The notes: generated by a model from the sequence alone, not told the origin. DNA of 64,000 nt from an uncultured Alphaproteobacteria bacterium (GCA_902618385.1 CACNAF010000004.1:762-64761), one strand, 5' to 3'; numbered from the stretch's first letter, positions 13,508 to 64,000 are shown. Numbers and translations are program-made.

Positions 13508-13530
13508 ATTATTAAATTTAAAATAATTTA

Positions 13531-13614
13531 TTAACAGCAATCTCCACCTTCACAAGTACAGCAACAGCTACAACTGCAACCACACTTTGGTGGGTTTGGA
13601 TTTTGATTTTTCAT
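13531..13614 (-). CDS. 27-aa cysteine-rich peptide (metallothionein-like), below the ORF-track size cutoff
   Basis: Reverse-strand ATG 13614 to TAA 13531 encodes MKNQNPNPPKCGCSCSCCCTCEGGDCC (9 Cys of 27). AGGT lies 6 nt upstream of the ATG. It fills an otherwise unexplained 147-nt gap and forms a local G+C rise. Confidence 0.55.
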   Translation of the reverse strand: MKNQNPNPPKCGCSCSCCCTCEGGDCC

Positions 13615-13654
13615 AATCATACCTATATATTTTATATAATAATTTAAAATACAT

Positions 13655-14955: not shown

Positions 14956-15050
14956 GTTTTTTTACTATATTATTTTATTACTTGCGTCACGCTGGCACAT
15001 ATTTAAAAAGTATTTTTTTGAGTAATTAAGATATAAGAAATTCACAATAA

Positions 15051-15578: not shown

Positions 15579-15579
15579 C

Positions 15580-16872
15580 ATGGATAAGAATAGAAAAGTA
15601 CATCAGTTTAAAAATCCTATCCTCAATTGGATAGAGTTTCGTTTACCAATTATTTCTTACTTCAAAAAAGAATACGGTGATTATCCAATGCCTAAAAATT
15701 GTAATTATTTTTGGAGTTTTGGTGCATTAGCAACAATTACGCTTGTTACAATGATAGTAAGCGGAATTTTTCTTGCAATGAATTACACGCCACATACCGA
15801 TATGGCATTTGATAGTGTTGAAAGAATAATGCGAGATGTCAATTACGGTTGGTTAATGCGATACATCCATTCCAATGGTGCAGCCTTTTTCTTCATCATA
15901 GTTTACATTCATATAGTAAGAGCAATGTATTTTGGTTCTTACAAGTATCCAAGAGAGCTTAATTGGATTTTAGGTGTATTTATATTTTTATTAATGATGG
16001 CAACTTCTTTTCTTGGTTACACATTACCGTGGGGACAAATGTCTTATTGGGGAGCAACGGTTATAACTAATTTATTTAGCGCAATTCCATTTATTGGTGA
16101 GGGATTAAAGACATGGCTTCTTGGTGATTACAATGTTGGAAATGCTACTTTAAACCGTTTCTTTGCTCTTCATTATGTTTTACCATTTGTTATTTTTGGT
16201 GTTGTAGGATTACATGTTGCTGCAGTCCATGTTCATGGTTCAAATAACCCTGATGGGATTGATATTAAAACTAACAATGACTCAGTAAACTTTTTTCCAT
16301 ATATGTTAATTAAAGATACAGTAGCTATGTGTGCTTTTGGTGTTGCTATTTCTGCAGTAATATTCTTTGGACCAAATCTTATGGCTGAAGTTGATAATTA
16401 TATTCCAGCAGATCCACTTGTTACTCCAGCTCACATTGTTCCAAACTGGTATCTTGCACCTTTTTATGCAATTTTAAGAGCAGTACCTGATAAATTAGGA
16501 GGGGTTCTCCTAATGTTTGGTGCGATAGTAATTCTCTTTGTTCTACCTTGGCTTGATAGATCAAAAGTGAGAAGCTGTAATTATAGACCAATATATAAGT
16601 GGTTTATGATGGGCTTTTTTGTTAACTTCTTTGCATTAGGCTACGTTGGTATGCTTCCTGCTGAAGGTTTATATCTTTTAATTGCTAGAGTAGGTTTACT
16701 TTACTACTTTGGTTTTTTCTTTATCATTACACCTTTTGTTGGTTGGATAGAGAAGCCAAGTAAGCTACCGCTCAGTATTAGTGATGTTTATGCTAAAAAT
16801 ATAGCTCCTAATATCGGTGGAGGAGAAAAAGGAATTCCTTCACCAGCAATGCAAAAAGATACAAATCTATAA
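15580..16872 (+). CDS. petB: Cytochrome b
   Basis: 430 aa polytopic protein with cytochrome b motifs (RYIHSNGAAFFF, PWGQMSYWGATVITN, PEWY-type region VPNWYLAPFY). Confidence 0.95.
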   Translation: MDKNRKVHQFKNPILNWIEFRLPIISYFKKEYGDYPMPKNCNYFWSFGALATITLVTMIVSGIFLAMNYTPHTDMAFDSVERIMRDVNYGWLMRYIHSNGAAFFFIIVYIHIVRAMYFGSYKYPRELNWILGVFIFLLMMATSFLGYTLPWGQMSYWGATVITNLFSAIPFIGEGLKTWLLGDYNVGNATLNRFFALHYVLPFVIFGVVGLHVAAVHVHGSNNPDGIDIKTNNDSVNFFPYMLIKDTVAMCAFGVAISAVIFFGPNLMAEVDNYIPADPLVTPAHIVPNWYLAPFYAILRAVPDKLGGVLLMFGAIVILFVLPWLDRSKVRSCNYRPIYKWFMMGFFVNFFALGYVGMLPAEGLYLLIARVGLLYYFGFFFIITPFVGWIEKPSKLPLSISDVYAKNIAPNIGGGEKGIPSPAMQKDTNL

Positions 16873-32792: not shown

Positions 32793-34562
32793 ATGGCAAA
32801 AATGACTACAGAAGAGGCTTTCGTAAAAGTTTTACAAAAACACGGTATTCAACATGCTTTTGGAATAATTGGTTCGGCATTTATGCCGATATCAGATCTT
32901 TTTCCTAAAGCTGGAATAACATTTTGGGATGTTGCTCATGAGTCAAATGGTGGAATTATGGCTGATGGCTATACAAGATCTACAGGTAAAATTGCAATGT
33001 GTATTGCGCAAAATGGACCTGGTATAACTGGCTTGGTTACACCTATAAAAACTGCTTTTTGGAACCATACTCCAATGCTCTTAGTTACTCCTCAAGCAGC
33101 TAATAAAACTATTGGTCAAGGAGGATTCCAAGAAGTCGAGCAAATGAACTTATTTAAAGATATGGTGTGCTATCAAGAAGAAGTAAGAGATCCCTCCAGA
33201 GTTGCAGAGGTTTTAAATAGAGTAATTTCAAAAGCTATTAAAGGATCCGCTCCTGCTCAATTAAATATACCAAGAGATTTTTGGACCCAAGTTGTTGATA
33301 TTGATCTGCCACCTATAATTAAATTTGAAAGACCTGCTGGTGGAACAGAAGCAATTAAAGAAGCTGCTGATCTTTTATCTAATGCAAAATTCCCAGTCAT
33401 TTTGTCTGGTGCTGGAGTGATATTAGCTGATGCTATTGATGATTGCAAAAAACTTGCTGAAAAATTAAGCGCTCCTGTTGCTTGCGGATACCAACACAAT
33501 GATAGTTTTCCAGGCAAACATCCCCTTGCGGTTGGTCCTTTAGGATACAATGGATCTAAAGCAGCAATGGAAATAATATCTAAGGCAGATGTAGTTTTAG
33601 CACTTGGTACAAGATTAAATCCCTTCTCAACTTTACCAGGTTATGGAATAGATTATTGGCCAAAAAATGCGGCTGTTATTCAAGTTGATATCAATTCTGA
33701 TCGCATTGGTTTAACAAAAAAAATTAGCGTTGGTATTTGTGGAGATGCAAAACTAGTTGCAGAACAAATTTTAGAAAACCTTACAACAAATGCAGGTGAT
33801 CAAAATAGAAAAGAACGAGAGGATTTAATTCATAAAACAAAGTCAGCTTGGCTTCAAACATTAACTGGCCTTGATCATGAAGAAGATGATCCTGGTACAT
33901 CTTGGAATAAAGATTCACGAGATAGAGAACCAGAAAAAATGTCACCAAGAATGGCATGGCGAGCTATTCAAGCAGGTCTTCCTGAAGATGCAATTATATC
34001 AAGTGATATAGGAAATAATTGTGCAATAGGTAATGCATATCCAACATTTGAGAATGGTAGAAAGTATTTAGCACCTGGTTTATTTGGGCCATGTGGGTAT
34101 GGTTTTCCATCTGTAATTGGAGCAAAGATAGGTTGCCCTAATACACCAGTTGTTGGTTTTGCAGGTGACGGCGCATTTGGAATTAGTATGAGTGAAATGA
34201 CTTCTTGTAATAGAGAAGGTTGGCCAAATATTACAATGATAATTTTTAGAAATTATCAATGGGGAGCGGAGAAAAGAAATACTACACTTTGGTATAATAA
34301 TAATTTTGTTGGAACAGAACTTGATCCTAAATTAAGCTATGCAAAGATTGCAGAAGCATGTGGATTTAAAGGTGTTAAAGTTTACACTCAAGAGGAACTA
34401 ACAGAAGCTTTGCAACAATCTTGCAAGGATCAAATGGAAGGCATAACTACTTTTATAGAAGTTATGTTAAATCAAGAACTAGGAGAACCTTTTAGACGAG
34501 ATGCTATGAAGGCCCCAGTTGAAGTTGCTGGAATTGATCCAAAAGATACAGTAGTTCAATAA
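32793..34562 (+). CDS. xsc: Sulfoacetaldehyde acetyltransferase (ThDP-dependent)
   Basis: 589 aa. The N-terminus MAKMTTEEAFVKVLQKHGIQHAFGIIGSAFMPISDLFPKAGITFWD closely matches my memory of characterised Xsc proteins. ThDP motif GDGAFG...N. A pta and a taurine-type aminotransferase are also in the window. Confidence 0.8.
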   Translation: MAKMTTEEAFVKVLQKHGIQHAFGIIGSAFMPISDLFPKAGITFWDVAHESNGGIMADGYTRSTGKIAMCIAQNGPGITGLVTPIKTAFWNHTPMLLVTPQAANKTIGQGGFQEVEQMNLFKDMVCYQEEVRDPSRVAEVLNRVISKAIKGSAPAQLNIPRDFWTQVVDIDLPPIIKFERPAGGTEAIKEAADLLSNAKFPVILSGAGVILADAIDDCKKLAEKLSAPVACGYQHNDSFPGKHPLAVGPLGYNGSKAAMEIISKADVVLALGTRLNPFSTLPGYGIDYWPKNAAVIQVDINSDRIGLTKKISVGICGDAKLVAEQILENLTTNAGDQNRKEREDLIHKTKSAWLQTLTGLDHEEDDPGTSWNKDSRDREPEKMSPRMAWRAIQAGLPEDAIISSDIGNNCAIGNAYPTFENGRKYLAPGLFGPCGYGFPSVIGAKIGCPNTPVVGFAGDGAFGISMSEMTSCNREGWPNITMIIFRNYQWGAEKRNTTLWYNNNFVGTELDPKLSYAKIAEACGFKGVKVYTQEELTEALQQSCKDQMEGITTFIEVMLNQELGEPFRRDAMKAPVEVAGIDPKDTVVQ

Positions 34563-43272: not shown

Positions 43273-44403
43273 TTGAACACGAAAATTTTAACAACACATG
43301 TAGGAAGTTTACCTCGTTCTAAAGCTTTATCAGAATTACTTTTTGCAAAAGATAAGGGAGATAGTTTTAGTGAAAATGAATTTGATGATGTTGTAAAACA
43401 AAATGTAAGTGACATTGTCAAAAAACAACTTGATACAGGTATTGATTTTGTCAGTGATGGTGAAATGAGTAAAATCAGTTATGCTACATATGTTAAAGAT
43501 AGAATTAATGGTTTTTCCGGTGAAAGTGAAAGAAGAGCGCCAGCTGACTTAGATGCATTTCCTGAATATAAAGATAAAATTGCTAAAAGTGGGGGAACAC
43601 CTACTTATACCCGACCCTGTTGTACTGGAGAACTCTCTATTAAAAATAATTATGATCTTTTAAAAGATATAAATAATCTATCTTCTGCATTAAATGCTAA
43701 TAATCATACTAAGGGCTTTATGAATGCTGCTTCACCAGGAGTCATAAATGTTTTTTTACCAAATAAATTTTACAAAAATGATGACGAGTACCTAAGTAAG
43801 CTTAGCGTGATTATGGCAGAAGAATATCAACAAATTACTTATAATAATTTATTCTTGCAAGTTGATTGTCCAGATTTAGCCCTAGCAAGGCATATGAATT
43901 TTAAAGAATTAGATGAAAAAAGTTTTTTGCTGCGAGCAGAAAAACAAATTGAAGCTCTTAATCTTTCACTGGCATCAGTTCCACAAGACAAAATTAGAAT
44001 GCATATCTGCTGGGGAAATTATGAAGGACCTCATACCTTTGATATTGGTTTGGAAAAAATTTTACCAATAGTACTTAAGGCAAAAAGTAAATATTTATTA
44101 ATTGAGTCTTCTAATCCAAGACATGCTCATGAATGGAAAGTTTTTGAAAAGATCAAATTGCCACAAGATAAAGTTATTGTGCCAGGTGTTATTGATTCTA
44201 CTTCAAATTTTGTTGAACACCCGGAAGTTGTTGCTGATCGGTTAAAACAATTTTCTACTTTTGTACCAAAGGAGCAAATTATGGCTGGTACAGATTGTGG
44301 TTTTAGTACTTTTGCTGGATTTGGAAAAGTTGATGAAAAAATTTGTTATGAGAAATTAATTTCGTTAGTTAAGGGCACTCAAATAGCATCTAAAACGATT
44401 TGA
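43273..44403 (+). CDS. Cobalamin-independent methionine synthase catalytic-domain-only (core-MetE / MetE-II family) protein, copy 1
   Basis: 376 aa, TTG start in the track. THVGSLPR N-terminus, and Zn-ligand pattern H-x-C (RMHICWGNYEG), IESSNPRH, DCG (AGTDCGFS). Confidence 0.7.
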   Translation: MNTKILTTHVGSLPRSKALSELLFAKDKGDSFSENEFDDVVKQNVSDIVKKQLDTGIDFVSDGEMSKISYATYVKDRINGFSGESERRAPADLDAFPEYKDKIAKSGGTPTYTRPCCTGELSIKNNYDLLKDINNLSSALNANNHTKGFMNAASPGVINVFLPNKFYKNDDEYLSKLSVIMAEEYQQITYNNLFLQVDCPDLALARHMNFKELDEKSFLLRAEKQIEALNLSLASVPQDKIRMHICWGNYEGPHTFDIGLEKILPIVLKAKSKYLLIESSNPRHAHEWKVFEKIKLPQDKVIVPGVIDSTSNFVEHPEVVADRLKQFSTFVPKEQIMAGTDCGFSTFAGFGKVDEKICYEKLISLVKGTQIASKTI

Positions 44404-50598: not shown

Positions 50599-51258
50599 AT
50601 GGATTATAAAGCACTTTTATTTGGATCTATTGGAACACTTATTGAATCTTCTAATATTCAACGTAATTCATTTAATGAAGCTTTTAAAGAAGCTGGTCTA
50701 GATTGGTATTGGGATGAGCAAGATTATAAAATTTTGTTAAAAAAATCTGGTGGGACAAAAAGAGTAGAAGATTTTGCTGAAAAAAATAATGTTAATGTAA
50801 ATGCTTCACAAATTAGAAATAGAAAAACAGAAATTTTTAGTTCATTCATTATTAAGAATAAACAAAAATTAAGAAAAAGTGTTGATGAGATAATTAAGTA
50901 TACAAAAGATAACAATATTAAACTTGCTTTCTCAACTTCTACAACTTTAAATAATGTCGATGCAGTATTTGAAAGTCTTTCTAGTCAAATTGCTAAAGAA
51001 GATTTTGACTTTATTGGCAATAAATCGTTTGTTAAAAATGAAAAACCCCATCCAGAAATATACAAAGTAACTTTAGATAAACTAAATTTACACCCAGAAG
51101 ATTGTCTTGCAATAGAAGATACTGAAGAAAGTAGTAACTCTGCCGTAAACGCTGGAATTAAGTGTATAGGGTTTCCAGGAGATTATCACCTAGAAGATAA
51201 TTTTCAGATGTGCATCAAAAAAATGAATTTATTAGATCAATCTATCTTTTCATTGTAA
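50599..51258 (+). CDS. HAD-fold protein (beta-phosphoglucomutase-like subfamily) lacking the motif-I aspartates
   Basis: 219 aa. Motif I reads LLFGSIGTLIES instead of FDxDGTLxDS. Motifs II (FSTST), III (KPHPEIY) and IV (EDTEESSNSAVNAG) are recognisable. Confidence 0.65.
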   Translation: MDYKALLFGSIGTLIESSNIQRNSFNEAFKEAGLDWYWDEQDYKILLKKSGGTKRVEDFAEKNNVNVNASQIRNRKTEIFSSFIIKNKQKLRKSVDEIIKYTKDNNIKLAFSTSTTLNNVDAVFESLSSQIAKEDFDFIGNKSFVKNEKPHPEIYKVTLDKLNLHPEDCLAIEDTEESSNSAVNAGIKCIGFPGDYHLEDNFQMCIKKMNLLDQSIFSL

Positions 51259-52045: not shown

Positions 52046-52903
52046 TTAATTTTCTTTATTTATAAAATAAGTTGCTACGATTACAATTACACCACCAATA
52101 AAAGTAATTAAAGTTGGTATTTCATAAAAAATTATAAATGTTAACAACACACCAAATACAGGAAATAAAGCGTAAAATGGAAATACTCTATTAACAGGAT
52201 ACATCCTATACAAATAAAACATCGACATATGTGCAGCAATTGAAACAAAGATACCTGAATGCAATATTAATAACCATGACTGAAAACTAATATTTTTTAT
52301 TTCGTTTATCGTTTGTCCTTCAAATATTGATGATGAAATAATTAGTAATACAAATCCAACTAGTCCCATTACTGCATTTGTGAGAGTAACTTCTAAATCT
52401 TTTAGGTACCTGGAAAATACTTGTGCACTAGCATAGAAGAATGCCATTAACGTTATTAAGATTAATGCAAAAATTTCATTTCTTATCAATGGATCAAAGC
52501 CTAACAAAATAATGCCAAAAAAAGAAATAAATATAAGTACCCATTTTTTAATACTTACTTTCTCTTTTAAAAAAAATGAGCTTAATAATATTGCAAATGG
52601 TACAGCCAGTTGAGAACCAATAATTATCGGAGAAACTATGTTTGCTTCATTTAAAGATAATGTCATAAAAACATTTGCCAAAAAACCCATAGAAATTGAA
52701 AAAAAGAGAAGTGGTAACCAGTATTTTTTTTCAGGAATTCTAAATTGCCAAAAAGGCAAAAGACATATGAAAACCACTAACATTCTTAAACTTCCCATTA
52801 ATAATGGGGGAACATTTTCATTAAAAATAACTTTCTGAACAGGGTAGGCACTTCCAAATAAAAAAGTGATTATTAAAATTAAAAAGTAATGTCTTAAAAG
52901 CAT
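52046..52903 (-). CDS. EamA/DMT-family transporter
   Basis: 285 aa, about 10 TM segments, two EamA-like halves. Downstream of pta on the same strand. Confidence 0.8.
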   Translation of the reverse strand: MLLRHYFLILIITFLFGSAYPVQKVIFNENVPPLLMGSLRMLVVFICLLPFWQFRIPEKKYWLPLLFFSISMGFLANVFMTLSLNEANIVSPIIIGSQLAVPFAILLSSFFLKEKVSIKKWVLIFISFFGIILLGFDPLIRNEIFALILITLMAFFYASAQVFSRYLKDLEVTLTNAVMGLVGFVLLIISSSIFEGQTINEIKNISFQSWLLILHSGIFVSIAAHMSMFYLYRMYPVNRVFPFYALFPVFGVLLTFIIFYEIPTLITFIGGVIVIVATYFINKEN

Positions 52904-52926: not shown

Positions 52927-53826
52927 TTAGTTATTTGCAGCAACTACAGCTGCCATAATTGACGCAAGTTTAGAATTTTTACTATCTGCTCTGCTAGGGA
53001 CTACAACTGGTACTTTACCACCAATTACTATTCCTGCCGCACAAGCATTCATAAAATAAACCATTATTTTGGACAAAGAATTTCCAGTTTCTAAATTAGG
53101 TACTAATAATACATCAGCATCACCAGCAACATCATTATTTATTCCTTTTATTTTAGCTGCTTCCTTAGAAACAGCATTATCAAAAGCAAGCGGTCCATGA
53201 ACAAAAGCATTAATTTTTTCTTCTAACGCAAGTTCCATAACTTTTTTGGCATCTACTGAACTTGGCATACTGTCAATTGGATCTTCTGTACCTGATAAAA
53301 TTGCAACTTTTGGTTTAGTAATATTTAATTTATTACAAAATTGAACAGCATTTTTAAGAATTTGTAATTTTATATCAACTCTTGGTAAAACATTTAAGGC
53401 GCCATCAGTAATAAAAAGGGGTTTTTTAAGCTGTGGCGTAGTCATATGCCAAATATGACTTAATCTTCTACCATCAAGTAAATTAAATTCTTTTTTTAAA
53501 TAAGAGCGCATTAAAATATCAGTATGAAGATTCCCTTTAATTATGATTTTACTTTTATTTTCATTAGAAATTTGACAAGCAATTGATGCACTATCCTCTT
53601 CATCTTTAGCCTCTACAATATTAAAATTAGAAATATCCAAACTTAATTTTTTCGCTGTTTCAGTAATTAAACTTTTATTTCCAATTAAAGTTGGATCGAT
53701 GAGGTTCATATTCTTACCTTCAATTACAGCTGATAATATGCTTTCTTGATTGGGGCACACAACTGCTGCTGGTATGTTAGGAGTCTCTAAAGCTTTACTT
53801 TTAAGATCTTCTGGTAATGTGCTCAT
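52927..53826 (-). CDS. pta: Phosphate acetyl/butyryl-transferase (short PTA_PTB form)
   Basis: 299 aa. PTA_PTB family features (IIKGNLHTD, FITDGALN, GDADVLLVPNLETGN, PVVVPSRADS). Its partner enzyme Xsc is in the window. Confidence 0.75.
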   Translation of the reverse strand: MSTLPEDLKSKALETPNIPAAVVCPNQESILSAVIEGKNMNLIDPTLIGNKSLITETAKKLSLDISNFNIVEAKDEEDSASIACQISNENKSKIIIKGNLHTDILMRSYLKKEFNLLDGRRLSHIWHMTTPQLKKPLFITDGALNVLPRVDIKLQILKNAVQFCNKLNITKPKVAILSGTEDPIDSMPSSVDAKKVMELALEEKINAFVHGPLAFDNAVSKEAAKIKGINNDVAGDADVLLVPNLETGNSLSKIMVYFMNACAAGIVIGGKVPVVVPSRADSKNSKLASIMAAVVAANN

Positions 53827-53944: not shown

Positions 53945-55285
53945 ATGGACTTAGAAAAAAGAACAGAAATACCTAATTCATTAGAAGAACATTGGATGCC
54001 ATTTACATCTAATAGAGATTATAAAAATAGTCCAAGATTAATGGTTAAGGCAGAAGGTGTTTATTATACTGATCATTATGGAAATAAATTAATTGATGCT
54101 AGCTCAGGGCTATTTTGTAGTCCAGCGGGTCATTCAAGACCAGAAATAAGAGAAGCAGTATCAAAACAATTAGAGCAATTAGATTATGTTCAACCATTTC
54201 AACAAGGTTTTGGTGGTTCATTTGATTTAGCTAGAAAAGTTTCAAAACATACACCCGAAGATTTAAATAAAATATTTTTTACTATTTGTGGTTCGTCAGC
54301 TGTTGAAACAGCAATTAAAACAGCCATAGCATATTTTAAAGCAAAAGGAGAAGGTCATAGATCTCACATAGTAGGAAGAGAAAGAGGTTATCATGGAATG
54401 AATATTGGAGGAATTTCTGTTGGTGGAATGATTGCTAATAGAAAAACTTTCTCAAATATTCTCATGCCAAATGTACATCATCTAAGACATACTCATTTAC
54501 CTGAAAATTTATTTGTAAAAGGCGAACCTGAAACAGGTGCTGATCTAGCAGATGATCTTGAAAGAATTGCTGGTAACATAGGTGCTGAAAATATTGCAGC
54601 ATGTATTGTAGAGCCAGTTGCAGGATCAACAGGAACTTTAGTTCCACCAAAAGGATATTTAAAAAGATTAAGAGAAATTTGTGACAAACACGGAATTCTT
54701 TTAATTTTTGATGAAGTTATTACTGGTTGGGGAAGAATGGGTGCTCCATTTGCAGCTCAAGCTTTTGATGTTTGTCCAGATATCATGACAATGGCTAAAG
54801 CAATTACTAATGGCGTTGTACCTTTAGGGGCAGTAGCTTCACGTGATCATATCTATGATACTATTGTTGATGCATCACCTACAGGAGCTATAGAATTTTT
54901 TCATGGTTATACTTATTCTGCTATACCAGTTTCAATGGCAGCAGGTTTAGCAATGCAAGATATAATCGAGAAAGAAGATTTATTTAATAGAGCAAAGGAT
55001 ATGTCTCCATATTTCTTAGATGGTTTATTTTCGTTGAAAGACTTAGATATCATTACTGATATAAGAGGATATGGAATGATGGGAGGAATTGACATTAAAA
55101 TGGATGAGCGTTTAGGCAAAGCTGGATATGCTTGTTTTAAAAAATTATTTGAAGCAGGCTTAAGCTTGAAAGCAACAGGTGATTGTTTAATTGTTGCACC
55201 TCCATTTACTTGTGAAAAAAAACATATTGATGAGATAATTGAAAAATTAAGAACAGGTATCTCAAACTATATGCATGACAGATAA
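53945..55285 (+). CDS. Class-III omega-amino acid/taurine:pyruvate aminotransferase
   Basis: 446 aa. HWMPFTSNR..., GYHG, LIFDEVITGWGRMG, and MAKAITNG (PLP Lys). Close by eye to beta-alanine/taurine--pyruvate transaminases, and coupled to ald. Confidence 0.85.
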   Translation: MDLEKRTEIPNSLEEHWMPFTSNRDYKNSPRLMVKAEGVYYTDHYGNKLIDASSGLFCSPAGHSRPEIREAVSKQLEQLDYVQPFQQGFGGSFDLARKVSKHTPEDLNKIFFTICGSSAVETAIKTAIAYFKAKGEGHRSHIVGRERGYHGMNIGGISVGGMIANRKTFSNILMPNVHHLRHTHLPENLFVKGEPETGADLADDLERIAGNIGAENIAACIVEPVAGSTGTLVPPKGYLKRLREICDKHGILLIFDEVITGWGRMGAPFAAQAFDVCPDIMTMAKAITNGVVPLGAVASRDHIYDTIVDASPTGAIEFFHGYTYSAIPVSMAAGLAMQDIIEKEDLFNRAKDMSPYFLDGLFSLKDLDIITDIRGYGMMGGIDIKMDERLGKAGYACFKKLFEAGLSLKATGDCLIVAPPFTCEKKHIDEIIEKLRTGISNYMHDR

Positions 55286-56400
55286 TGAAAATAGGTGTTC
55301 CCTCTGAGATTAAAGCTCAGGAGTCCAGAGTTGGGCTTACCCCACAAAGTGTTAAAGAATTAGTAAAAGATAAACATACCGTTCTAATCCAAAAGGATGC
55401 GGGTATTGGAGCTGGCTTTTCAAATAGTGATTATGAATTGTCAGGTGCTAAAATTGTAAATTCCGCTGAAGATGTTTTCAATGATTCTGAAATGATCGTA
55501 AAAGTAAAAGAACCTCTAATGAATGAAGTAGCAATGATAAGAGAAAACCAAATTTTATTTACTTATTTACATCTTTCAGCAGCTCCAGAATTGACAAAGG
55601 GTTTAATTGATTCAAATTCTATTTGTATAGCTTATGAAACGGTAAGTGATCATAATAATAAATTACCTCTGCTAGCACCAATGAGTGCTGTAGCAGGTAG
55701 AATGTCGATACAAGCAGGAGCTTATTCTCTTGAAAAACATAAGGGTGGAAGTGGTTTACTTTTAGGTGGCGCACCTGGAGTTCAGCCTGGAAATGTATTA
55801 ATTTTAGGTGGAGGTGTTGTTGGAGAAAATGCAGCAATAATTGCTACAGGTATGCAAGCAAAAGTTTTCATCGTTGATAAATCAGAAAAAAGATTAGAAG
55901 AATTACAAGAAAAATTTGGTGATAAAATAGAACCACTACATAGTGATAAAATAAATCTAAAAGATTATATTTCTGAATGTGATTTACTAATTGGCGGAGT
56001 ACTTGTTCCAGGCTCTAATGCTCCAAAGATTATAACTAAGGACATGATAAAAGAGATGAAAAGTGGATCTGTAATTGTTGATGTTGCAATTGATCAAGGT
56101 GGTTGTGTTGAAACTAGTAAACCAACAACTCATGCAAACCCTACATATGTTGTTGATGATGTTGTTCATTATTGTGTTGCAAATATGCCAGGGGGAGTTC
56201 CTAGAACTTCCACTCTTGCTTTAAATGCAGTCACTTTGCCATTTATTCAAAACTTAGCTTCTAATGGTTTTAAAGATGCTTTAAAAAATGATAAAAATTT
56301 TATGAATGGTTTAAATATTTTTAAAGGTGCCGTTACATATAAGGCTATTGCTGATGATTTAAATTATGATTATGCTAATCCAGAAACTTTAGTACACTAA
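55285..56400 (+). CDS. ald: Alanine dehydrogenase
   Basis: 371 aa. MKIGVPSEIKAQESRVGLTP, NAD motif ILGGGVVGENAA, and VHYCVANMPG. The start overlaps the aminotransferase stop (TAATG). Confidence 0.95.
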   Translation: MKIGVPSEIKAQESRVGLTPQSVKELVKDKHTVLIQKDAGIGAGFSNSDYELSGAKIVNSAEDVFNDSEMIVKVKEPLMNEVAMIRENQILFTYLHLSAAPELTKGLIDSNSICIAYETVSDHNNKLPLLAPMSAVAGRMSIQAGAYSLEKHKGGSGLLLGGAPGVQPGNVLILGGGVVGENAAIIATGMQAKVFIVDKSEKRLEELQEKFGDKIEPLHSDKINLKDYISECDLLIGGVLVPGSNAPKIITKDMIKEMKSGSVIVDVAIDQGGCVETSKPTTHANPTYVVDDVVHYCVANMPGGVPRTSTLALNAVTLPFIQNLASNGFKDALKNDKNFMNGLNIFKGAVTYKAIADDLNYDYANPETLVH

Positions 56401-57446
56401 AAACTATTAGAAGCTTCTACCATTATCTTTAATTTTATTTTTGCCAAATCTCGAGGTAAGTGACCAAGGCCACAATCAGGAGCAACAATTAATTGTTCCT
56501 TATCAATAAACTTTAATGCATCATTTATTCTCGAGACAATTTCTTCTTTAGACTCTACTTGAGAGCTTGCTATTTTTACTAAACCAAAAATAACTTTTGT
56601 TTGTTTAAAATCTTTTAAAAAATTTAAATCATTATATCGATGAGCATCTTCAATAGAAACTGTATCTATAATTGACTCATCTAAAGCTTTACTAATTTTA
56701 CTGTAAGAATCTAAAGGCGCTTTTGGATAATCTACTGCATCTAATTTATCAGGATAGCCGCAACAAATATGAGTAATTTTTTCAATACTTTGATTATTAA
56801 TATTCTTAAAACATCTTTCTAGGTTTTTAATTCCAAAATTAAGAGCATTTTCTGGTTTTCTAGCAAACAACGGTTCATCGACTTGAATGTATTTACATCC
56901 TGCATCAACCAATCTTTTAATTTCTACATTAATAGCATCAGCTAAGTCTTCACCCATATGTTCATCTGAATCATAAAATGTATTTGCTATGGTGTCTGTT
57001 ATAGTCATTGGTCCAGGTATAGTAATTTTTAAATCTTTATTCGTTAAACTCTGATTTTTTTTCCACTCTTCAACCAAAAAAGATTCTTTTGCTTTAACTT
57101 TTGAAGTTATTGTTGGTAACCAGCATTTATAATTACCTGTCCTAGCAACTTTTTCTGTGAGATTTGCAAAGTCAATTCCTTCTAAATATCTACAATGATA
57201 GTGAATGTAATTTTCTCTTCTAACTTCACCATCGGTTACGATATCAATACCACATTCTTCCTGATCACTAATTATTTCTTTGCTAGCTTTATTAAATAAC
57301 TCTTCAACATTATCGCCCATTTTTTTTATTTCATCTTCGTAAAATTTAGTTGGATATTCAGTGTCTGTGCCACCAGAAGCATTAAACCAATCAGTTATTT
57401 TTAAGTAGCTTGGTTTTGGATACGCGCCTATAACAGTCGTTAACAT
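56397..57446 (-). CDS. Core-MetE / MetE-II family Zn-dependent (thiol) methyltransferase-like protein, copy 2
   Basis: The track ORF (to 57497) overlaps the upstream gene by 44 nt. I prefer ATG 57446 (MLTTVIGAYPKPSY...), 7 nt after the sulfatase stop. Zn pattern THICCGYPD, SIEDAHR, APDCGLGHL. Confidence 0.7.
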   Translation of the reverse strand: MLTTVIGAYPKPSYLKITDWFNASGGTDTEYPTKFYEDEIKKMGDNVEELFNKASKEIISDQEECGIDIVTDGEVRRENYIHYHCRYLEGIDFANLTEKVARTGNYKCWLPTITSKVKAKESFLVEEWKKNQSLTNKDLKITIPGPMTITDTIANTFYDSDEHMGEDLADAINVEIKRLVDAGCKYIQVDEPLFARKPENALNFGIKNLERCFKNINNQSIEKITHICCGYPDKLDAVDYPKAPLDSYSKISKALDESIIDTVSIEDAHRYNDLNFLKDFKQTKVIFGLVKIASSQVESKEEIVSRINDALKFIDKEQLIVAPDCGLGHLPRDLAKIKLKIMVEASNSF

Positions 57447-57453
57447 ATCTTTA

Positions 57454-58989
57454 TTATTCCATTTTTCTGCTAAATGGTCCAGATTTTGTATTAACACCTG
57501 AACTGGAAAGTTTAGTGTTTGATAATTGTCGCTCCTGATGAATCATGCGGTGACTTAACAATTTTGATACTAGTTCATGTTTTATATCTTTAAATTCTCT
57601 TAAGTCTGATAGATCATTTATTTCCTCAGGATCTTTTTCTAAATCAAATAATAAACATGGCAATGAAGGAAAATGAACATATTTCCATTTATTATTTCTA
57701 ATGACCGATAGATTACATTGTTCGGGTGCTAATTTTTTATCTTTAACAAATGAAGTACTTTCTCTAAAATCATAATCAAAAACAACATATTCTTTATTAG
57801 GTGATTTTTCGTATTTATGATTGATATTGTGCATCAGTGATTGACCATTCCAATCAATGGGGATGTCACCACCAAGCCATTCTAAAATTGTAGGAGCAAC
57901 ATCTACAGATTCTGTTAAATGGTTAATTTCTTTTGGATTGTTTTGAGGCAGATAAATAAATAATGGAATTCTATAAGAAGAGTCCCACCAACCTAATTTC
58001 CCCCATAAATTATTTTCATTTAACATCTCTCCATGATCACTAGTAAAAATTATCATTGTATTTTCTTCTTGCCCTGATTCTTTAAGAGCATTCAAAATTT
58101 TACCAATATTAAAATCAACTTCTGCGCACATAGCAAAATAGACACTCATAATATTTTTGATATCTTGATCTTTTAAAAGATCATAATTAATTTCAGAGAA
58201 ATTTTCTTTTAGTAAAAATTTTTTACATAACTCTTCAAGTAGTGGATGTTTTTTTGATAATTCTTTCAGTGAAATATCATTTTTAGATAAGTTAATACTA
58301 TCTGGATTAAATTTACTAAACCATGGATCAGCTACATGAAAGGGTGGGTGTGGTTTTAAAAAAGATACATGCATAAAAAATGAATCTTTAACCTTTTTTA
58401 AGTCGTTAACAACTTTGTCTGCTAAAAATGCGGTGTCTGAAAATTCAGTTGGAATATAATATGGCTCATAAATATACGCTTGATCATCTTTAGGCTTTCT
58501 TCCTTTGTACAAATCTTCTGCTTTATTAATTTCAAAACCATTTTGATTAAGATGGTTAGCCCAAGGCTCAGGTTTTCCCCCTGGTAAAACACAACCATCA
58601 TCAAATCCTTCCATTGGTGATTCATAGGTAAAATTTTTTTTATCTTTTGGATCCAAGTATCTTGGATCCCAAGAAGTATCAGTGTATCCGTAAAGTCTTG
58701 GATTATAATTTAGTTTACGAACTTCTTTAGCGATATTTGTAAATCTTTTATCAAGAGGAGCGCCATTATATACTGAACGATGTATAAATGGATATAAACC
58801 TGTAAGCATAGTAGTTCTAGATGGACCACAAGGGACAATTCCAGCAAAATGTGATTTAAAAACTACACTTTTTTTTGCAAGTTTGTCTAAGTTTGGTGTT
58901 AGAGCATATGGATGATTTAGGAAGCTAAAGCAGTCAAAACGCCATTGATCAGCACATATAAAAAGAACAGATTTTTTGGATTTTTCCAT
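57454..58989 (-). CDS. Formylglycine-type sulfatase-family hydrolase, phosphonate-monoester-hydrolase (PMH)-like subgroup
   Basis: 511 aa, no signal peptide. CADQWRFD, active-site C-x-P-x-R (VPCGPSRTTMLTGLYP), FTSDHGE, PTILEWLGG, KYVHF and LFDLEKDPEE, which match my memory of rhizobial PMH. Confidence 0.8.
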   Translation of the reverse strand: MEKSKKSVLFICADQWRFDCFSFLNHPYALTPNLDKLAKKSVVFKSHFAGIVPCGPSRTTMLTGLYPFIHRSVYNGAPLDKRFTNIAKEVRKLNYNPRLYGYTDTSWDPRYLDPKDKKNFTYESPMEGFDDGCVLPGGKPEPWANHLNQNGFEINKAEDLYKGRKPKDDQAYIYEPYYIPTEFSDTAFLADKVVNDLKKVKDSFFMHVSFLKPHPPFHVADPWFSKFNPDSINLSKNDISLKELSKKHPLLEELCKKFLLKENFSEINYDLLKDQDIKNIMSVYFAMCAEVDFNIGKILNALKESGQEENTMIIFTSDHGEMLNENNLWGKLGWWDSSYRIPLFIYLPQNNPKEINHLTESVDVAPTILEWLGGDIPIDWNGQSLMHNINHKYEKSPNKEYVVFDYDFRESTSFVKDKKLAPEQCNLSVIRNNKWKYVHFPSLPCLLFDLEKDPEEINDLSDLREFKDIKHELVSKLLSHRMIHQERQLSNTKLSSSGVNTKSGPFSRKME

Positions 58990-59031
58990 ATTTACTAATG
59001 ATTATTAAAGTAATTAATTAAGAAGAAATAC

Positions 59032-59053
59032 ACAATTTTTTTAAAAAAATTGT
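59032..59053. promoter_or_regulatory. Perfect 22-nt palindrome ACAATTTTTTTAAAAAAATTGT in the sulfatase / ABC-SBP divergent region
   Basis: Seen directly. A second inverted repeat, TTGTTT-AC-AAACAA, lies at 59091-59104. Function unproven; A/T tracts are common here. Confidence 0.3.
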
Positions 59054-59140
59054 AATAAAAACGTCAAATATTTTTGCTAAAAAATCAAAATTGTTTACAA
59101 ACAAAATCATACGATAAATTTATCTTATAGGAGAAAATAT

Positions 59141-61195
59141 ATGTTAAAAAAACTATTCATAGCGTTAGTATTTTCTTCCGCAACCTTTGTCTGGAGTGGA
59201 AGCTCTTTTGCAGGTGGTCATTGCGTAGGTACAACAATGAACGATGCACAGACAGGCGGAAAATATCCTCAGCAATATGAGTTATCAGAATATGAAAGTG
59301 CAGCCGGCTGTACTATGAAGTTTTCAGATAATCCAAATATTGCTAGCATAAACGCTACAATACAAGGTAACCCAGGAAGTCTACCCCCAGTTGAGGATAG
59401 ATTACCTGATGAGCCACTTGTTGTAGTACCATATGAGTCTATTGGTAAATATGGAAATACAATAAACTTCTTATCGAATGCAACTGAAGCTGGAACTTCT
59501 GATATGCTATCTACAAGACACGTAAACTTATTACGTTTTGCTGATGATTTAACTACAATTGTTCCAAACGTTGCTAAAGATTATGAGTGGAATGATGATT
59601 TTACTACTTTAACATTCATGTTACGTAAAGGTCACAAGTGGTCAAATGGTGAACCTTTTGTGGCTAGAGATGTTGAGTTTTGGTACGAAGATTTGATGAT
59701 GAATCCAAAGATTCGTGAAAAACCATATCCATATCTTTTAGTTGGTGGTGAGCCAATGACTGTTGATGTAATTGATGATCAAACAGTAAGATTTAACTTA
59801 CCATCTCCGTTCCCTGGTTTAACTGCAACTATTGCATGGTCATATAACCAGTTCTTCATGCCTTCACATTTCCTAGAACAATTCCATCCGGAAATTGATT
59901 CAAATGCTGATGCAAATGCTCAGGCATTAGGATTTGCAGATGGTTATGATGCTTTAGCAGCATATTATGGTAACTCAGGTTGGACTGATACTCCAACTCC
60001 TTTACTAGCTAAACCAGATCTAGTTGCTGGATTACCTTATGCAGCTTATCCTTCTTTAGAAGCTTACATGACTATTGAAGACACTACTGAAGGTAGAGTC
60101 TATGCAGCTAACCCATACTTTTTCCAAGTTGATACAGCTGGGAATCAATTACCATACATTGATTATCAAAATGAAAGATACATCAATGAAAATGAAATAA
60201 GATTGTTAAAACTTGTTAATGGTGAAGTTGATTATAAATCACAGTCTGTTCAATTAGAGTCCGCTCCTCAATTACTTGATGGTGCTGAGTCTGGTGGATA
60301 TCAAGTTCAAATCAATCCAGGTTGTGGTGCTGCATTATTTAGCTTTAATGTAACACATCCTGATCCTGAAAAACGTAAAGTCTATGGGGATATTCGTTTC
60401 CGTCAAGCAATGTCAATTGCAATGAATAGAGACGAGATCAACGAAGTTGCATATTACGGTTTAGGTAAAGTTGAGCAGTTTGTAGGATTTTCTCCTGCAC
60501 CTGACTTCGTTCCTGAAAGTATAAAAATGCATATGACTCAATACGATCCAGATGGAGCTAATGCTCTGCTTGATGAAGTAGGATTAAAAGACGTTGATGG
60601 TGATGGATTTAGAGAATTACCAAATGGTGATGCTCTAGCTATTAACATTGACTATGCTACTCAAGGTATTGGTGGTGTTGAAGTTGAACTTGTTGCAAGA
60701 TACTTCAATGAAGTAGGAGTAAAAACTACTTTTAAAGAGGTAACTCCAGATGAATATCGTGGTTCGCAAGCTGCTAACCAACTTGACGTTCATGTTTGGG
60801 ATAAAGGTCAACCATTAGCAATTGTTGCTGGTAACCCAGAAACATTTAAACCTCCGTTTGGTAACTACTTTAACCATACACAAGGTTTAGATTGGGCAGC
60901 ATACATTGATAGTAATGGTGACGAAGGTACTAAACCTCCTCAGTGGGTATATGACTTAAGTGATGGAATTGATAAATTCCAATCTTACGCTCTTGGTACT
61001 GCTGAGTCTAATGAGTGGGGTGAAAAAATTGCAACAATGTTAACAGAGCAAAGTCTATTGATTGGTACGGTGAAAGCACCTTTCCCAACTTATCATAGAA
61101 ATGCTTTGAAAAACTTTACGCAGTTTAAAACTACTTCGTATGAGTATTATAGAACATACCCATACCTAGCTACTCAATGGTGGTTAGACGAGTAA
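59141..61195 (+). CDS. ABC transporter substrate-binding protein, family 5 (peptide/opine/nickel type), long form
   Basis: 684 aa. Signal peptide (…WSGSSFAGG), SBP_bac_5-like core (…TFMLRKGHKWSNGEPFVARDVEFWYE…), and RBS GGAG. Confidence 0.85.
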   Translation: MLKKLFIALVFSSATFVWSGSSFAGGHCVGTTMNDAQTGGKYPQQYELSEYESAAGCTMKFSDNPNIASINATIQGNPGSLPPVEDRLPDEPLVVVPYESIGKYGNTINFLSNATEAGTSDMLSTRHVNLLRFADDLTTIVPNVAKDYEWNDDFTTLTFMLRKGHKWSNGEPFVARDVEFWYEDLMMNPKIREKPYPYLLVGGEPMTVDVIDDQTVRFNLPSPFPGLTATIAWSYNQFFMPSHFLEQFHPEIDSNADANAQALGFADGYDALAAYYGNSGWTDTPTPLLAKPDLVAGLPYAAYPSLEAYMTIEDTTEGRVYAANPYFFQVDTAGNQLPYIDYQNERYINENEIRLLKLVNGEVDYKSQSVQLESAPQLLDGAESGGYQVQINPGCGAALFSFNVTHPDPEKRKVYGDIRFRQAMSIAMNRDEINEVAYYGLGKVEQFVGFSPAPDFVPESIKMHMTQYDPDGANALLDEVGLKDVDGDGFRELPNGDALAINIDYATQGIGGVEVELVARYFNEVGVKTTFKEVTPDEYRGSQAANQLDVHVWDKGQPLAIVAGNPETFKPPFGNYFNHTQGLDWAAYIDSNGDEGTKPPQWVYDLSDGIDKFQSYALGTAESNEWGEKIATMLTEQSLLIGTVKAPFPTYHRNALKNFTQFKTTSYEYYRTYPYLATQWWLDE

Positions 61196-61281: not shown

Positions 61282-62295
61282 ATGATTAATTTTATACAAT
61301 TTACTCTCACAAGAGCAGGACTTGCAATTATAACTTTGCTTCTTGTATGCTTTATTGTTTTTTCATTAATGGAATTAGTTCCTGGAACTTGTGCTGAAAG
61401 ATATCTAGCATTTAAAAATACACAAGGATCACAAATAACTTATGAAGATATAGAAAAAGAAAAAATTCGTTTAGGTTTAGATAAACCTTTTTTATATAGA
61501 TATGGCAAATGGGTTTCTAATATAGTTTTTAATGGAGATTTTGGTGATAGTTGTATTCTAAGAATGAATATTAATGAATTATTAAGTGGAAGATTTACTT
61601 TATCTTTAACAATATGTTTGGTTGCACTAATATTTTCATATTTAATTGCCATACCAGTTGGGATCATATCGGCCACGACAAAATATGCATCATTAGATAA
61701 TACGCTTAAATTTATTAGTTATCTTGGAATAGCACTTCCCAATTTTTTAGTAGCACTCTGTATTATGCTTTTTATGACTGTTTACTATGGCGATACGATG
61801 ACAGGTTTATTTTCTCAAGAATATGAAAACGAACCCTGGTCATCAGCAAAACTATTTGATTTTTTAAGTAGAGCTTGGCTTCCAATATTTGTTTTAGGTT
61901 GGAATGCAACTGCCTTTGCTCTTCAAACAGTAAGAGCACTAATGCTAGATGAAAATGATAAACTATATGTAATGGCTGCAAGGGCTAGAGGAATATCAGG
62001 AATGAGTTTGTTGTGGAGATATCCAGCAAAACATTCTTTAGGTCCAGTAATCAATTCTATAGGTTTCGACCTTAATCGTATATTTAGTGCATTGCCGATT
62101 GTGGCCTTAATTTTAATTCTTACAGAAGCTGGAGCATTGTTGATTGAAGCTTTAGCAAGATCAAATGATCAGCAATTAGCAGGTGCAATTATTTTTCTTC
62201 TGACAGCAACAATTGTTTTTGTAAATTTTATAACGGATATTATTTTAGCTATAATTGATCCAAGAATAAGAAAAGGAGTTATGGGTGGAGGTTAG
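61282..62295 (+). CDS. ABC transporter permease (DppB/OppB-like)
   Basis: 337 aa. BPD_transp_1 core with ...YVMAARARGISGMSLLWRYPAKHSL... (EAA-like loop). Confidence 0.85.
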   Translation: MINFIQFTLTRAGLAIITLLLVCFIVFSLMELVPGTCAERYLAFKNTQGSQITYEDIEKEKIRLGLDKPFLYRYGKWVSNIVFNGDFGDSCILRMNINELLSGRFTLSLTICLVALIFSYLIAIPVGIISATTKYASLDNTLKFISYLGIALPNFLVALCIMLFMTVYYGDTMTGLFSQEYENEPWSSAKLFDFLSRAWLPIFVLGWNATAFALQTVRALMLDENDKLYVMAARARGISGMSLLWRYPAKHSLGPVINSIGFDLNRIFSALPIVALILILTEAGALLIEALARSNDQQLAGAIIFLLTATIVFVNFITDIILAIIDPRIRKGVMGGG

Positions 62296-63445
62296 TAATC
62301 AAAAAAAAGAAGCTTATTATACTGCAACGCAGATGCAGTTAGTAAGAACACGCTTTTTTGGAAATAGATCTGCTATGATTGCTGGTTCTATTTTATTATT
62401 TATGATTATTTGTAGTCTATTTGCAGATTTTCTATCTCCTTATGATCCAACAATTAAAGGAAGAGATAAAGATTATGAAAACGGAGCACCTCAAATTCCA
62501 ATGTTTTGGGATGATAATGGATTTTCTGCTAGGCCGTTTTTACACACATTAGAAAAGTATAGAGGTGCAGATACAAATTTTAGATGGGTCTATAAAGTTG
62601 ATACTGAAAAAAGAAGATACGTTTATTTTTTTGTTGAAGGATGGGAATATAAAGTTTTTGATTTTAATATAAATCTTCCAGGAAAAATTTTAGATTTTAA
62701 AATTCCAGGTTTTACATTTAATACTCATTTATTTGGAGTTGAAGAAGGCGGTATCCATATATTTGGCACAGATAAGGCAGGAAAAGATTTATTCAGTAGA
62801 ACCTTAAGCGCAATTTACATTTCACTGGCTGTTGGAACTCTTGGTGTATTTATATCTTTTGTTCTATCCCTAATAATAGGCGGGATCTCAGGTTACTATG
62901 GTGGTTGGATTGATAGCGTATTACAAATGTTTACCGATGCAATTCGAACGGTTCCACCCATACCTCTGTTTATGTGTCTTGCTGCCTTTGCGCCATTAGA
63001 ATGGAGTTCTGAATTACGGTTCTTTTTTATTTCTTGTTTGCTTGGATTAATTTCATGGCCAACACTTGCTAGAAGAGTAAGAACGCATCTACTTAGTGAA
63101 AGAAGCCAAGAATATATTCTTGCTGCAAAGCTTTGTGGAGCATCATCCACTCATATTATTGTAAGACACTTATTACCAAGTTTCACGAGTTATATTATTG
63201 TCGATTTAGTCATTAGTTTCCCATACATGTTATTATCTGAAACAGCTTTAAGTTTTATAGGACTTGGTTTGAGAGAACCAGTAAACTCTCTGGGTGTACT
63301 TTTGCAAAATGCAACAAAGGCCGACGTACTTTTAAACTATCAATGGTATTTTATCCCTGTATTTTTCTTAGTCGTATTAATTTTAACATTTGTCTATGTA
63401 GGGGATGGATTACGTGATGCAGCAGATCCTCATAAGGTAAAGTAA
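62285..63445 (+). CDS. ABC transporter permease (DppC/OppC-like) with an extended periplasmic insertion
   Basis: 386 aa. N-terminal TM, an insertion of about 110 aa, then the core with ...YILAAKLCGASSTHIIVRHLLP... Overlaps the previous permease gene by 11 nt. Confidence 0.85.
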   Translation: MEVSNQKKEAYYTATQMQLVRTRFFGNRSAMIAGSILLFMIICSLFADFLSPYDPTIKGRDKDYENGAPQIPMFWDDNGFSARPFLHTLEKYRGADTNFRWVYKVDTEKRRYVYFFVEGWEYKVFDFNINLPGKILDFKIPGFTFNTHLFGVEEGGIHIFGTDKAGKDLFSRTLSAIYISLAVGTLGVFISFVLSLIIGGISGYYGGWIDSVLQMFTDAIRTVPPIPLFMCLAAFAPLEWSSELRFFFISCLLGLISWPTLARRVRTHLLSERSQEYILAAKLCGASSTHIIVRHLLPSFTSYIIVDLVISFPYMLLSETALSFIGLGLREPVNSLGVLLQNATKADVLLNYQWYFIPVFFLVVLILTFVYVGDGLRDAADPHKVK

Positions 63446-63446: not shown

Positions 63447-64000
63447 ATGAGTCATTTATTAGAAGTAAAAAATTTAGATGTAAAATTTGATACTGATGAA
63501 GGTAGAATTACAGCAGTTGAAAATATTTCTCTTTCTGTAGATCAAGGTGAAGTACTTGGTATAGTTGGTGAATCCGGATCAGGTAAATCTGTGACTGCTA
63601 AATCGATTATGAAATTAAATCCAGGTAATACTTCTTATAATGAAGACGCAGAAATAATATTAGACAACGAAAATGTTCTTAAATTTACCTCTAAGCAAGA
63701 CTTAAAAAAAATAAGAGGTGGTAAAGTATCAATGATTTTTCAAGAGCCTATGGCAAGTTTTGCTCCAGCAATAAAAATTGGCGCACAAATGGTTGAGCAA
63801 TTACTAATTCATAAAAATATTAATAAAGAGGAAGCAAAATCAATATCCATAAACATGCTAAAAAGAGTAGGCATAGCAGATGCAGAAAAACGGTTTAATC
63901 AATATGCATTTGAATTATCTGGGGGAATGCGTCAAAGAGCAATGATAGCTATGGCATTATCCACTATGCCTAAACTTTTATTAGCAGATGAGCCAACAAC
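63447..64000 (+). CDS. ABC transporter ATP-binding protein (DppD/OppD-like), 5' part (runs off the window end)
   Basis: ATG 63447: MSHLLEVKNLDVKF...GESGSGKSV (Walker A)...LSGGMRQR (signature)...LLLADEPT (Walker B). Truncated by the window edge. Confidence 0.9.
   Translation, partial: MSHLLEVKNLDVKFDTDEGRITAVENISLSVDQGEVLGIVGESGSGKSVTAKSIMKLNPGNTSYNEDAEIILDNENVLKFTSKQDLKKIRGGKVSMIFQEPMASFAPAIKIGAQMVEQLLIHKNINKEEAKSISINMLKRVGIADAEKRFNQYAFELSGGMRQRAMIAMALSTMPKLLLADEPT

Follow-up and report, generated by a model that had tools for sequence, protein, structure and literature searches.

What ester does a cytoplasmic formylglycine hydrolase cleave when its gene stands between an ATP-binding cassette (ABC) importer of family 5 and a gene for a methionine synthase-like enzyme, and do the three act in one pathway? 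To our knowledge, the natural substrate of phosphonate monoester hydrolase (PMH), a textbook promiscuous enzyme, has never been found, and the locus that raises this question encodes a protein of the PMH type. It lies in a 64,000-nt stretch of DNA from an uncultured Alphaproteobacteria bacterium (GCA_902618385.1, CACNAF010000004.1:762-64761; the whole stretch is hereafter called the window), where the genes for the 511-aa hydrolase and for a catalytic-domain-only MetE homologue (the MetE-like protein) are divergent from the importer operon (Table 1). From the comparison of related loci we favor, at about even confidence, the reading that importer and hydrolase would form an accessory module inserted beside an older, independently conserved MetE-like gene.

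The window has a low G+C content (~30%), and its 46-64 kb region shares 98.5% DNA identity with the single-cell genome AG-892-B03 ("uncultured Alphaproteobacteria"). Because of this near-identity, and because the related loci come from HIMB59 or MarineAlpha5, the host is a marine alphaproteobacterium of the HIMB59/AEGEAN-169 type. A scan of species-representative genomes with the MetE-like gene yielded 80 loci; counts made from the MetE side cover 129 full-length MetE-like genes, and counts made from the hydrolase side cover 114 evaluable hydrolase matches, in loci fetched via either gene. Loci compared with the window carry L-numbers (L001, L005, L144 and so on). A search of the published HIMB59 literature returned nothing on a locus of hydrolase, MetE-like gene and importer.

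The PMH-type hydrolase and its importer

The hydrolase matched the Pfam Sulfatase family (E 4.6e-51) and carries the formylglycine motif C54-G55-P56-S57-R58. NCBIfam PehA matched it at 410.8 bits over profile positions 2-504 of 506, under the 900-bit equivalog cut-off, and its top four PDB matches were all PMHs (E 1e-92 to 1e-82, query residues 4-502), namely ArPMH 4UPH (311.9 bits), RlPMH 2VQR (297.8 bits), BcPMH 2W8S (297.4 bits) and 4UPK (278.8 bits). The next matches were the sister arylsulfatases 4UPI (180.5 bits, E 6e-52) and 4UPL (155.7 bits, E 2e-44; PDB names of both groups from PMC12421950); in this search the hydrolase scored far higher on PMHs (279-312 bits) than on any characterized sulfatase. 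The active site is of the same type. An alignment of 11 clade sequences, down to 54% identity, showed C54, G55, P56 and R58 of the motif to be invariant, along with D14, N75, Y102, H214, D318-H319 and K331. The key residues include Y102-T103-D104, part of a Y-T-D-T motif shared with ArPMH 4UPH; this Y-x-D occupies the place of the Lys/His pair of sulfatases, and its Asp104 corresponds to T107 of RlPMH, as in ArPMH. The fourth metal ligand is His (D318-H319), a PMH trait, whereas classical arylsulfatases have Asn (PMC12421950).

RlPMH 2VQR, BcPMH/PehA 2W8S and ArPMH 4UPH share with the hydrolase full-length homology (E 1e-92 to 1e-87), the C-x-P-x-R motif, an Asp/Asp/His metal site with His as the fourth ligand, equivalents of N75, Y102, H214 and K331, and the lack of a signal peptide, for which the hydrolase has no space because its catalytic domain begins at residue 8 (direct reading and the N-terminal consensus place the start of the sulfatase domain and metal ligand D14 at residues 8-14). 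Characterized PMHs are classed in S1_0 by SulfAtlas (PMC5066984). The hydrolase differs from them in staying under the PehA cut-off, in belonging to a separate marine clade (54-97% identity in the database, followed by a gap down to ~45%) and in being fixed beside the importer and the MetE-like gene. More than 100 loci, over 51-100% identity, carry an intact copy of the gene with no change in the catalytic residues. The PMH family gains a new member here, in surroundings that narrow down where the natural substrate of PMH may be sought. The initial annotation, which had likened the protein to rhizobial PMH and had noted the CGPSR motif, the missing signal peptide and the divergence from a family-5 importer, agrees with these data throughout.

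The annotation had also set apart the case of clear orthology to a characterized sulfatase such as BetC (S1_12), which is likewise a cytoplasmic formylglycine-family enzyme and acts on a small osmolyte ester. Orthology to BetC was ruled out: TIGR03417 gave 178.6 bits vs the cut-off of 433.45, with its best stretch confined to residues 185-477 in the C-terminal half, and the BetC matches in PDB reached E 1e-28. No formylglycine-generating enzyme (FGE) or anaerobic sulfatase-maturating enzyme (anSME) had been seen nearby, and our scans of the window were likewise empty: no open reading frame (ORF) of at least 100 aa carried an RGG[SA][WFY] or CX3CX2C motif, and PF03781 and PF04055 were absent from the Pfam scans; ~15 ORFs of evident housekeeping function were assessed by visual inspection alone. 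Separately, L144 holds two tandem PMH-like copies (8451..11527), 53-54% identical to the window protein, upstream of a MetE-like gene and PhnW.

The set of the family-5 (cluster C) importer consists of the solute-binding protein (SBP) and permeases in the window and of both ATPases in orthologous loci; the ATPase fragment at the window end matched, by tblastn, ABC_tran/oligo_HPY genes of related loci at 85-88% identity. The closest solved relatives of the SBP are 5IPW, the pectin-oligosaccharide binder SPH1118, the alpha-galactoside binder AgpA and a chitin-oligosaccharide binder. The divergent spacer contains a perfect, A/T-rich palindrome of 11+11 nt at 59031-59052 (ACAATTTTTTTAAAAAAATTGT), adjoined by a TTGACA-type box and partly conserved in loci with the hydrolase and in loci with an alternative PHP-family gene alike; no Pho box was seen in the spacer by eye in the alignment. 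Two further genes were observed just beyond the ABC ATPases in L005, L004 and L007, at a spot just past the window end: ComD (sulfopyruvate decarboxylase subunit alpha, above cut-off, L005 147..647 (-), with equivalent positions in L004 and L007) and a GalM-like epimerase.

The steady partner of the hydrolase is this kind of importer. All loci with this importer have either the hydrolase gene or the PHP-family gene, and loci without it have neither. In L132 and L133 the hydrolase gene adjoins a different family-5 SBP (41% identity), and in L132 and L152 it is followed by an enolase-superfamily gene; all three loci are without a MetE-like gene. A hydrolase so placed, beside the family-5 SBP of 41% identity and with no MetE-like gene, has 56% identity, and 36%-identical homologues come after an ABC ATPase. 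Among homologues at 34-42% identity a MetE-like neighbor was never seen, and the 41-42%-identical PMH homologues of L166 and L168, from other bacteria, have unrelated neighbors. In L097, the MetE-like gene is gone and the hydrolase gene runs directly into alanine dehydrogenase. These arrangements make the hydrolase-importer link well supported on genomic grounds. Two more candidates for a hydrolase without a MetE-like gene, L114 and L149, were dismissed as truncated or frameshifted contigs.

The MetE-like gene with and without the hydrolase

In the window, a gap of 7 nt separates the TAA stop codon of the hydrolase gene (57454-57456) from the ATG at 57446 that opens the MetE-like gene. The MetE-like gene is immediately downstream in 102 of the 114 evaluable hydrolase matches and within 9 kb in 7 more. 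Counted from the other side, the 129 MetE-like genes have the hydrolase gene immediately upstream in 89 cases and further away in 6; 13 have the PHP-family gene instead and 21 have neither hydrolase, nor the transporter. The MetE-like gene is thus without the sulfatase-type hydrolase in 34 loci, some of them with the same importer, and where that hydrolase is missing it has its own divergent upstream region of 61 nt. In Pelagibacteraceae, MarineAlpha5 and Arenicellales it occurs with neither that hydrolase nor this importer.

The loci of the PHP state show a clean exchange of the hydrolase gene. In these 13 loci, a 302-aa gene occupies the position of the hydrolase gene on the opposite strand (e.g., L005 9031..9939 (-)), where it reads in the direction of the transporter operon and is its first gene. 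Its product is a PHP-fold metallohydrolase with an N-terminal HxH (CehA/McbA 73.9 bits vs a cut-off of 80). By blastn of the window against L005, L042, L043 and L045, homology extends from 64000 down to 59019-59023, breaks off there and is regained at 57446-57457, with 82-90% DNA identity in the flanks; SBP and permeases of PHP-type loci are 96% and 99% identical to those of the window. The exchanged cassette consists of the hydrolase gene with short flanks of ~30 nt (5') and 7 nt (3'), and the spacer from 59019 on is kept in loci without this hydrolase. Loci of the PHP state fall into two clades within hydrolase-bearing lineages in a neighbor-joining tree of the MetE-like proteins, which implies at least two replacements. 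The idea that the PHP hydrolase is an isofunctional substitute found no support beyond its position.

The co-conservation of the three units that the initial annotation anticipated holds in most PMH-bearing marine relatives, and fails to the extent that the MetE-like gene and the importer also occur together without the sulfatase-type hydrolase. The proposal of one catabolic pathway for all three is only partly supported, with the MetE-like gene standing beside a PHP hydrolase or alone and the hydrolase standing without it in L097, L132, L133 and L152.

The MetE-like protein contains only the Meth_synt_2 domain, the N-terminal Meth_synt_1 scoring 23.9 bits (below the 27-bit cut-off). It is not a canonical MetE, with 349 aa vs ~750 aa for the two-barrel enzyme and 112.3 bits vs a cut-off of 929.95 on TIGR01371. 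Its best PDB match was 3RPD (E 9e-40), the MesD core methionine synthase, for which contact residues are listed (Price et al. 2021, PMC7857596). The Zn ligands H226 and C228 (H-x-C), E266 and C325 were invariant in all 129 sequences, as were E74 and D190, the equivalents of homocysteine contacts, and Y231, the MesD-specific Tyr. MesD shares with the MetE-like protein the catalytic-only fold, the four Zn ligands, the Glu/Asp amino contacts and this Tyr. It differs from it in four respects. First, similarity is low: the MetE-like protein scored 140.1 bits against 3RPD, and the MesD family was defined by at least 390 bits to a different reference, ACIAD3523. Second, the carboxylate-binding Ser (Ser433 equivalent, position 8) is Ala in 115 of the 129, including the window. 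Third, MesD is an oxygen-dependent core methionine synthase requiring MesX (Price et al. 2021, PMC7857596), and MesX (DUF1852) was absent among the Pfam-annotated genes of L001-L007 and in the window scans. At last, the MetE-like gene adjoins taurine or 2-aminoethylphosphonate (AEP) catabolic genes and ABC importers. Membership in the MesD family itself is doubtful, given the low similarity and the lack of MesX. Judged by its sequence, the protein is a MesX-less relative of MesD, and it very probably binds homocysteine in a Zn-dependent manner. The intact Zn site and the 7-nt distance to the hydrolase gene had both been described correctly at the outset.

Two observations on this family stand apart. 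Most homologues have 349-350 aa and an ATG start; a GTG at 57497 opens an alternative ORF (56397..57497 (-)) that overlaps the 3' end of the hydrolase gene by 44 nt, and a 366-aa form appears in some database entries. The window also encodes a second, distant MetE-family paralogue of 376 aa (43273..44403 (+); Meth_synt_2 E 1.8e-14) with an H-I-C, E, C Zn site by eye, clustered with a cupin, three double-SnoaL proteins, a HisD-family dehydrogenase (possibly HpsN-like) and an SBP_bac_1 ABC importer.

The genes for a Tpa-like aminotransferase and for alanine dehydrogenase (Ald) converge on the MetE-like gene and are its conserved neighbors. With phosphate acetyltransferase (Pta) and sulfoacetaldehyde acetyltransferase (Xsc, 18-22 kb from the other three genes), they constitute, by their profile scores, a full taurine-to-acetyl-CoA route, in which Tpa activity is predicted. 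Similar surroundings recur in distant lineages. In Pelagibacteraceae, the MetE-like gene comes after a PotD-like ABC importer and converges on Ald–Xsc–Tpa; on two Arenicellales chromosomes (Gammaproteobacteria; MetE-like identity 55-56%), Tpa-like genes lie ~5 kb upstream; and in L086, one of these two, a single strand carries tpa, genes of a PotD-like ABC importer, the MetE-like gene and a gene for an aldehyde dehydrogenase, beside Ald and Xsc. Insertions also separate hydrolase and MetE-like genes: L094 (5924..10956) has a TauABC-like importer (NMT1-type SBP, ATPase, permease) and an epoxide hydrolase between them, and L108 (~11600..16800) has a similar ~5 kb insertion including an ABC ATPase. 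In L003, L138, L139 and L144, PhnA, a PhnY-like dehydrogenase and PhnW replace the taurine genes, co-directional with the hydrolase–MetE pair, and in L167 a 41%-identical PMH homologue adjoins PhnW, PhnA and PhnY. These loci resemble the pmh genes that lie beside phnWX and phnWYA in marine isolates (PMC13608971); the window differs in having a taurine cluster (Tpa-like, Ald and Pta, with Xsc 22 kb off). Since Ald–Tpa–Xsc or PhnA/Y/W together with some importer are found consistently, the theme of the MetE-like gene would be 2-aminoethyl-sulfonate/-phosphonate catabolism, with the hydrolase no constant part of it.

Several side observations belong to this neighborhood. Agmatinase-like ureohydrolase genes lie directly beside Ald–Tpa in L001 (13251..14228), L007 (12195..14059), L051 and L094, sometimes with DUF1989 (urea-related), and one in Pelagibacteraceae adjoins the PotD-like importer; they could indicate a guanidino-compound route, e.g., from taurocyamine to taurine. 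The epoxide hydrolase of L094, near a MetE-family Zn enzyme, is reminiscent of epoxyalkane:CoM transferase. A gene for a choline-dehydrogenase-like GMC oxidoreductase (574 bits vs a cut-off of 605) is convergent with xsc in the window.

Table 1 Features of the locus and its neighborhood in the window
Feature	Position	Strand	Basis
PMH-type (SulfAtlas S1_0-like) formylglycine hydrolase, 511 aa, cytoplasmic	57454..58989	-	Pfam, NCBIfam, PDB matches, clade alignment
Catalytic-domain-only MetE homologue, 349 aa, closest to MesD	56397..57446	-	Pfam, NCBIfam, PDB, 129-sequence alignment
Exchangeable cassette (hydrolase gene and its short flanks)	57447..59018	.	blastn
Divergent intergenic region, 151 nt, between hydrolase gene and transporter operon	58990..59140	.	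Sequence, blastn
Family-5 periplasmic SBP, 684 aa, signal peptide	59141..61195	+	Pfam SBP_bac_5, 177.6 bits
Two ABC permease genes	61282..62295, 62285..63445	+	ORFs; orthologues in L001-L007 carry BPD_transp_1, OppC_N
First ABC ATPase gene, 5' part, runs off window end	63447..64000	+	tblastn
Alanine dehydrogenase (Ald)	55285..56400	+	alaDH 482.8 bits vs 391.85 cut-off
Class-III omega-aminotransferase, Tpa-like	53945..55285	+	AptA 587 bits vs 500 cut-off
Phosphate acetyltransferase (Pta)	52927..53826	-	PTA subfamily NF006045 307.4 bits vs 282
EamA-family transporter	52046..52903	-	Pfam/NCBIfam scans
Sulfoacetaldehyde acetyltransferase (Xsc)	32793..34562	+	TIGR03457 956.4 bits vs 676.4 cut-off

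Elsewhere in the window, a HAD-family protein of the beta-phosphoglucomutase type (50599..51258 (+)) has GSIGT at the usual DxDGT nucleophile site and may be catalytically inactive or perform different chemistry. A zinc-uptake island (8023..13242) encodes a Fur-family regulator, ZnuB, ZnuC, ZnuA with a long (DH)n repeat and a CobW-type GTPase, and includes a 345-aa WD40 beta-propeller protein, unusual in bacteria.

Candidate substrates and competing explanations

In the accessory-module reading, the family-5 importer, whose SBP resembles oligosaccharide and glycoside binders, would take up a small anionic ester, and the cytoplasmic hydrolase encoded across the spacer would cleave it. Because of the PMH-type active site, the sugar-like context and the PMH-like genes beside AEP genes, a phosphonate monoester or phosphodiester would be the likeliest bond, rather than a sulfate ester; examples are sugar or polyol esters of aminoethylphosphonate or of another phosphonate or phosphate group. 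A sugar-like skeleton of the ligand is what the SBP relatives and the GalM-like and enolase-superfamily neighbors point to. In sister lineages, the hydrolase gene would have been exchanged for the PHP-family gene. The MesD-like core-MetE would belong to the C2 amino-sulfonate/phosphonate catabolic neighborhood and would have been present before the module arrived, and its proximity to the hydrolase would reflect insertion geometry, not a common substrate. The MetE-like gene is probably functionally independent of the hydrolase, insertion explaining their link at least as well. Both genes are probably co-transcribed in this genome, which is plausible because of the 7-nt gap and the lack of a terminator; a promoter and terminator scan of 56200-59300 gave nothing above shuffled controls and no verdict on co-transcription.

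A known system follows the logic proposed here. In the Agrobacterium acc operon, the family-5 SBP AccA imports agrocinopine, a sugar phosphodiester, which the cytoplasmic phosphodiesterase AccF cleaves. Family-5 import of an anionic sugar ester would likewise be followed by a cytoplasmic esterase in our locus; AccF differs in coming from an unrelated family (GDPD), whereas the hydrolase belongs to the alkaline-phosphatase superfamily, and the likeness is one of logic.

Three sets of observations count against this reading. First, the adjacency of hydrolase and MetE-like genes, with gaps of 0-15 nt, spans hydrolase identities of 51-100% and persists when the downstream cluster switches from taurine to AEP; such a stable adjacency fits shared function equally well. 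Second, PHP homologues outside the clade have no link to family-5 importers (in SAR116 and another bacterium they adjoin an MFS transporter/HisD-like gene or a protein phosphatase), which leaves equal function of the two cassette genes unproven. Third, genes of organosulfur metabolism abound in the window and in related loci (Xsc, Tpa-like, Pta, an HpsN-like HisD homologue, CysQ and ComD), and no phosphonate genes were seen in the window; this context therefore favors a sulfur ester in this genome.

The third set leads to the alternative that, within the same architecture, the hydrolase is a true sulfatase in vivo that desulfates an imported sulfated sugar or osmolyte, and that the carbon skeleton, perhaps with organosulfur products, would then enter the sulfonate and sugar catabolism encoded around it. 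Ald and the CysN/C/D-like genes of L007 extend the organosulfur set listed, in which ComD stems from L005, past the transporter, and the sugar-binding type of SBP with the GalM-like and enolase-superfamily neighbors suits a sulfated sugar as well. Work by van Loo and colleagues from 2010 reportedly found that PMHs hydrolyze sulfate esters promiscuously. A sulfate ester is a serious alternative as the substrate; nevertheless, the fourth ligand His and the Y-x-D in place of the sulfatase Lys/His pair, the scores on PMHs (279-312 bits vs 156-180 bits for 4UPI and 4UPL) and the recurrence of the hydrolase beside Phn genes make this explanation, as a whole, rather unlikely.

No more probable is a single pathway of importer, hydrolase and MetE-like enzyme for an imported methylated onium ester, such as choline-O-sulfate, phosphocholine or a trimethyl-aminoethylphosphonate ester, which would be de-esterified and would then give up one methyl group to homocysteine at the Zn site to form methionine. 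The adjacency in 102 of the 114 matches with its short gaps, the L003-type loci in which hydrolase, MetE-like, PhnA, PhnY and PhnW genes form one co-directional string, and the invariant Zn ligands and homocysteine contacts all fit this pathway, and an extra route to methionine would be useful because SAR11-type cells are described as lacking both MetE and MetH (PMC12478193). However, the MetE-like gene is kept without the hydrolase in the 34 loci described above, including those with the same importer, where it has its own upstream region; the hydrolase is found without the MetE-like gene; and no gene for further demethylation lies nearby, with BetC orthology excluded.

The weakest explanation, which we regard as improbable, is that of a stand-alone, promiscuous or decaying hydrolase gene in a recombination hot spot flanked by two conserved blocks, functionally unlinked to both neighbors, whose adjacency would be mere inherited synteny in a streamlined genome: the clean replacement by an unrelated, oppositely oriented gene, the unrelated neighbors in L166 and L168 and the flexible islands at fixed positions described for HIMB59 (PMC10734472) agree with it, but the gene is intact with invariant catalytic residues at 51-100% identity in more than 100 loci, is tandemly duplicated in L144 and is always beside a family-5 importer, even a divergent one.

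Implications for PMH and for marine oligotrophs

Returning to the module of importer and hydrolase, it fixes the marine clade to one importer and, in some lineages, to AEP genes, which leaves few concrete ligands for the SBP and the enzyme. That two unrelated hydrolase genes replace each other cleanly while their flanks are conserved illustrates how streamlined genomes can vary by cassette. SAR11, HIMB59-type and some gammaproteobacterial genomes conserve the MetE-like gene near taurine genes, and an active-looking core-MetE in SAR11, described as without MetE and MetH (PMC12478193), merits a direct test.

A more far-reaching possibility, to which we give little weight, is that the marine PMH-type hydrolases supply a missing cytoplasmic step, the release of phosphonates from their natural sugar or polyol esters once a family-5 importer has taken these up. 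Aminoethyl-, hydroxyethyl- or methylphosphonate would be released in this way, from esters that would be the form of phosphonates in marine dissolved organic matter and phosphonoglycans. If true, this would provide PMH with a physiological substrate and tie HIMB59-like oligotrophs to phosphonate cycling, and the MesD-like enzyme would, separately, form methionine in SAR11-type cells.

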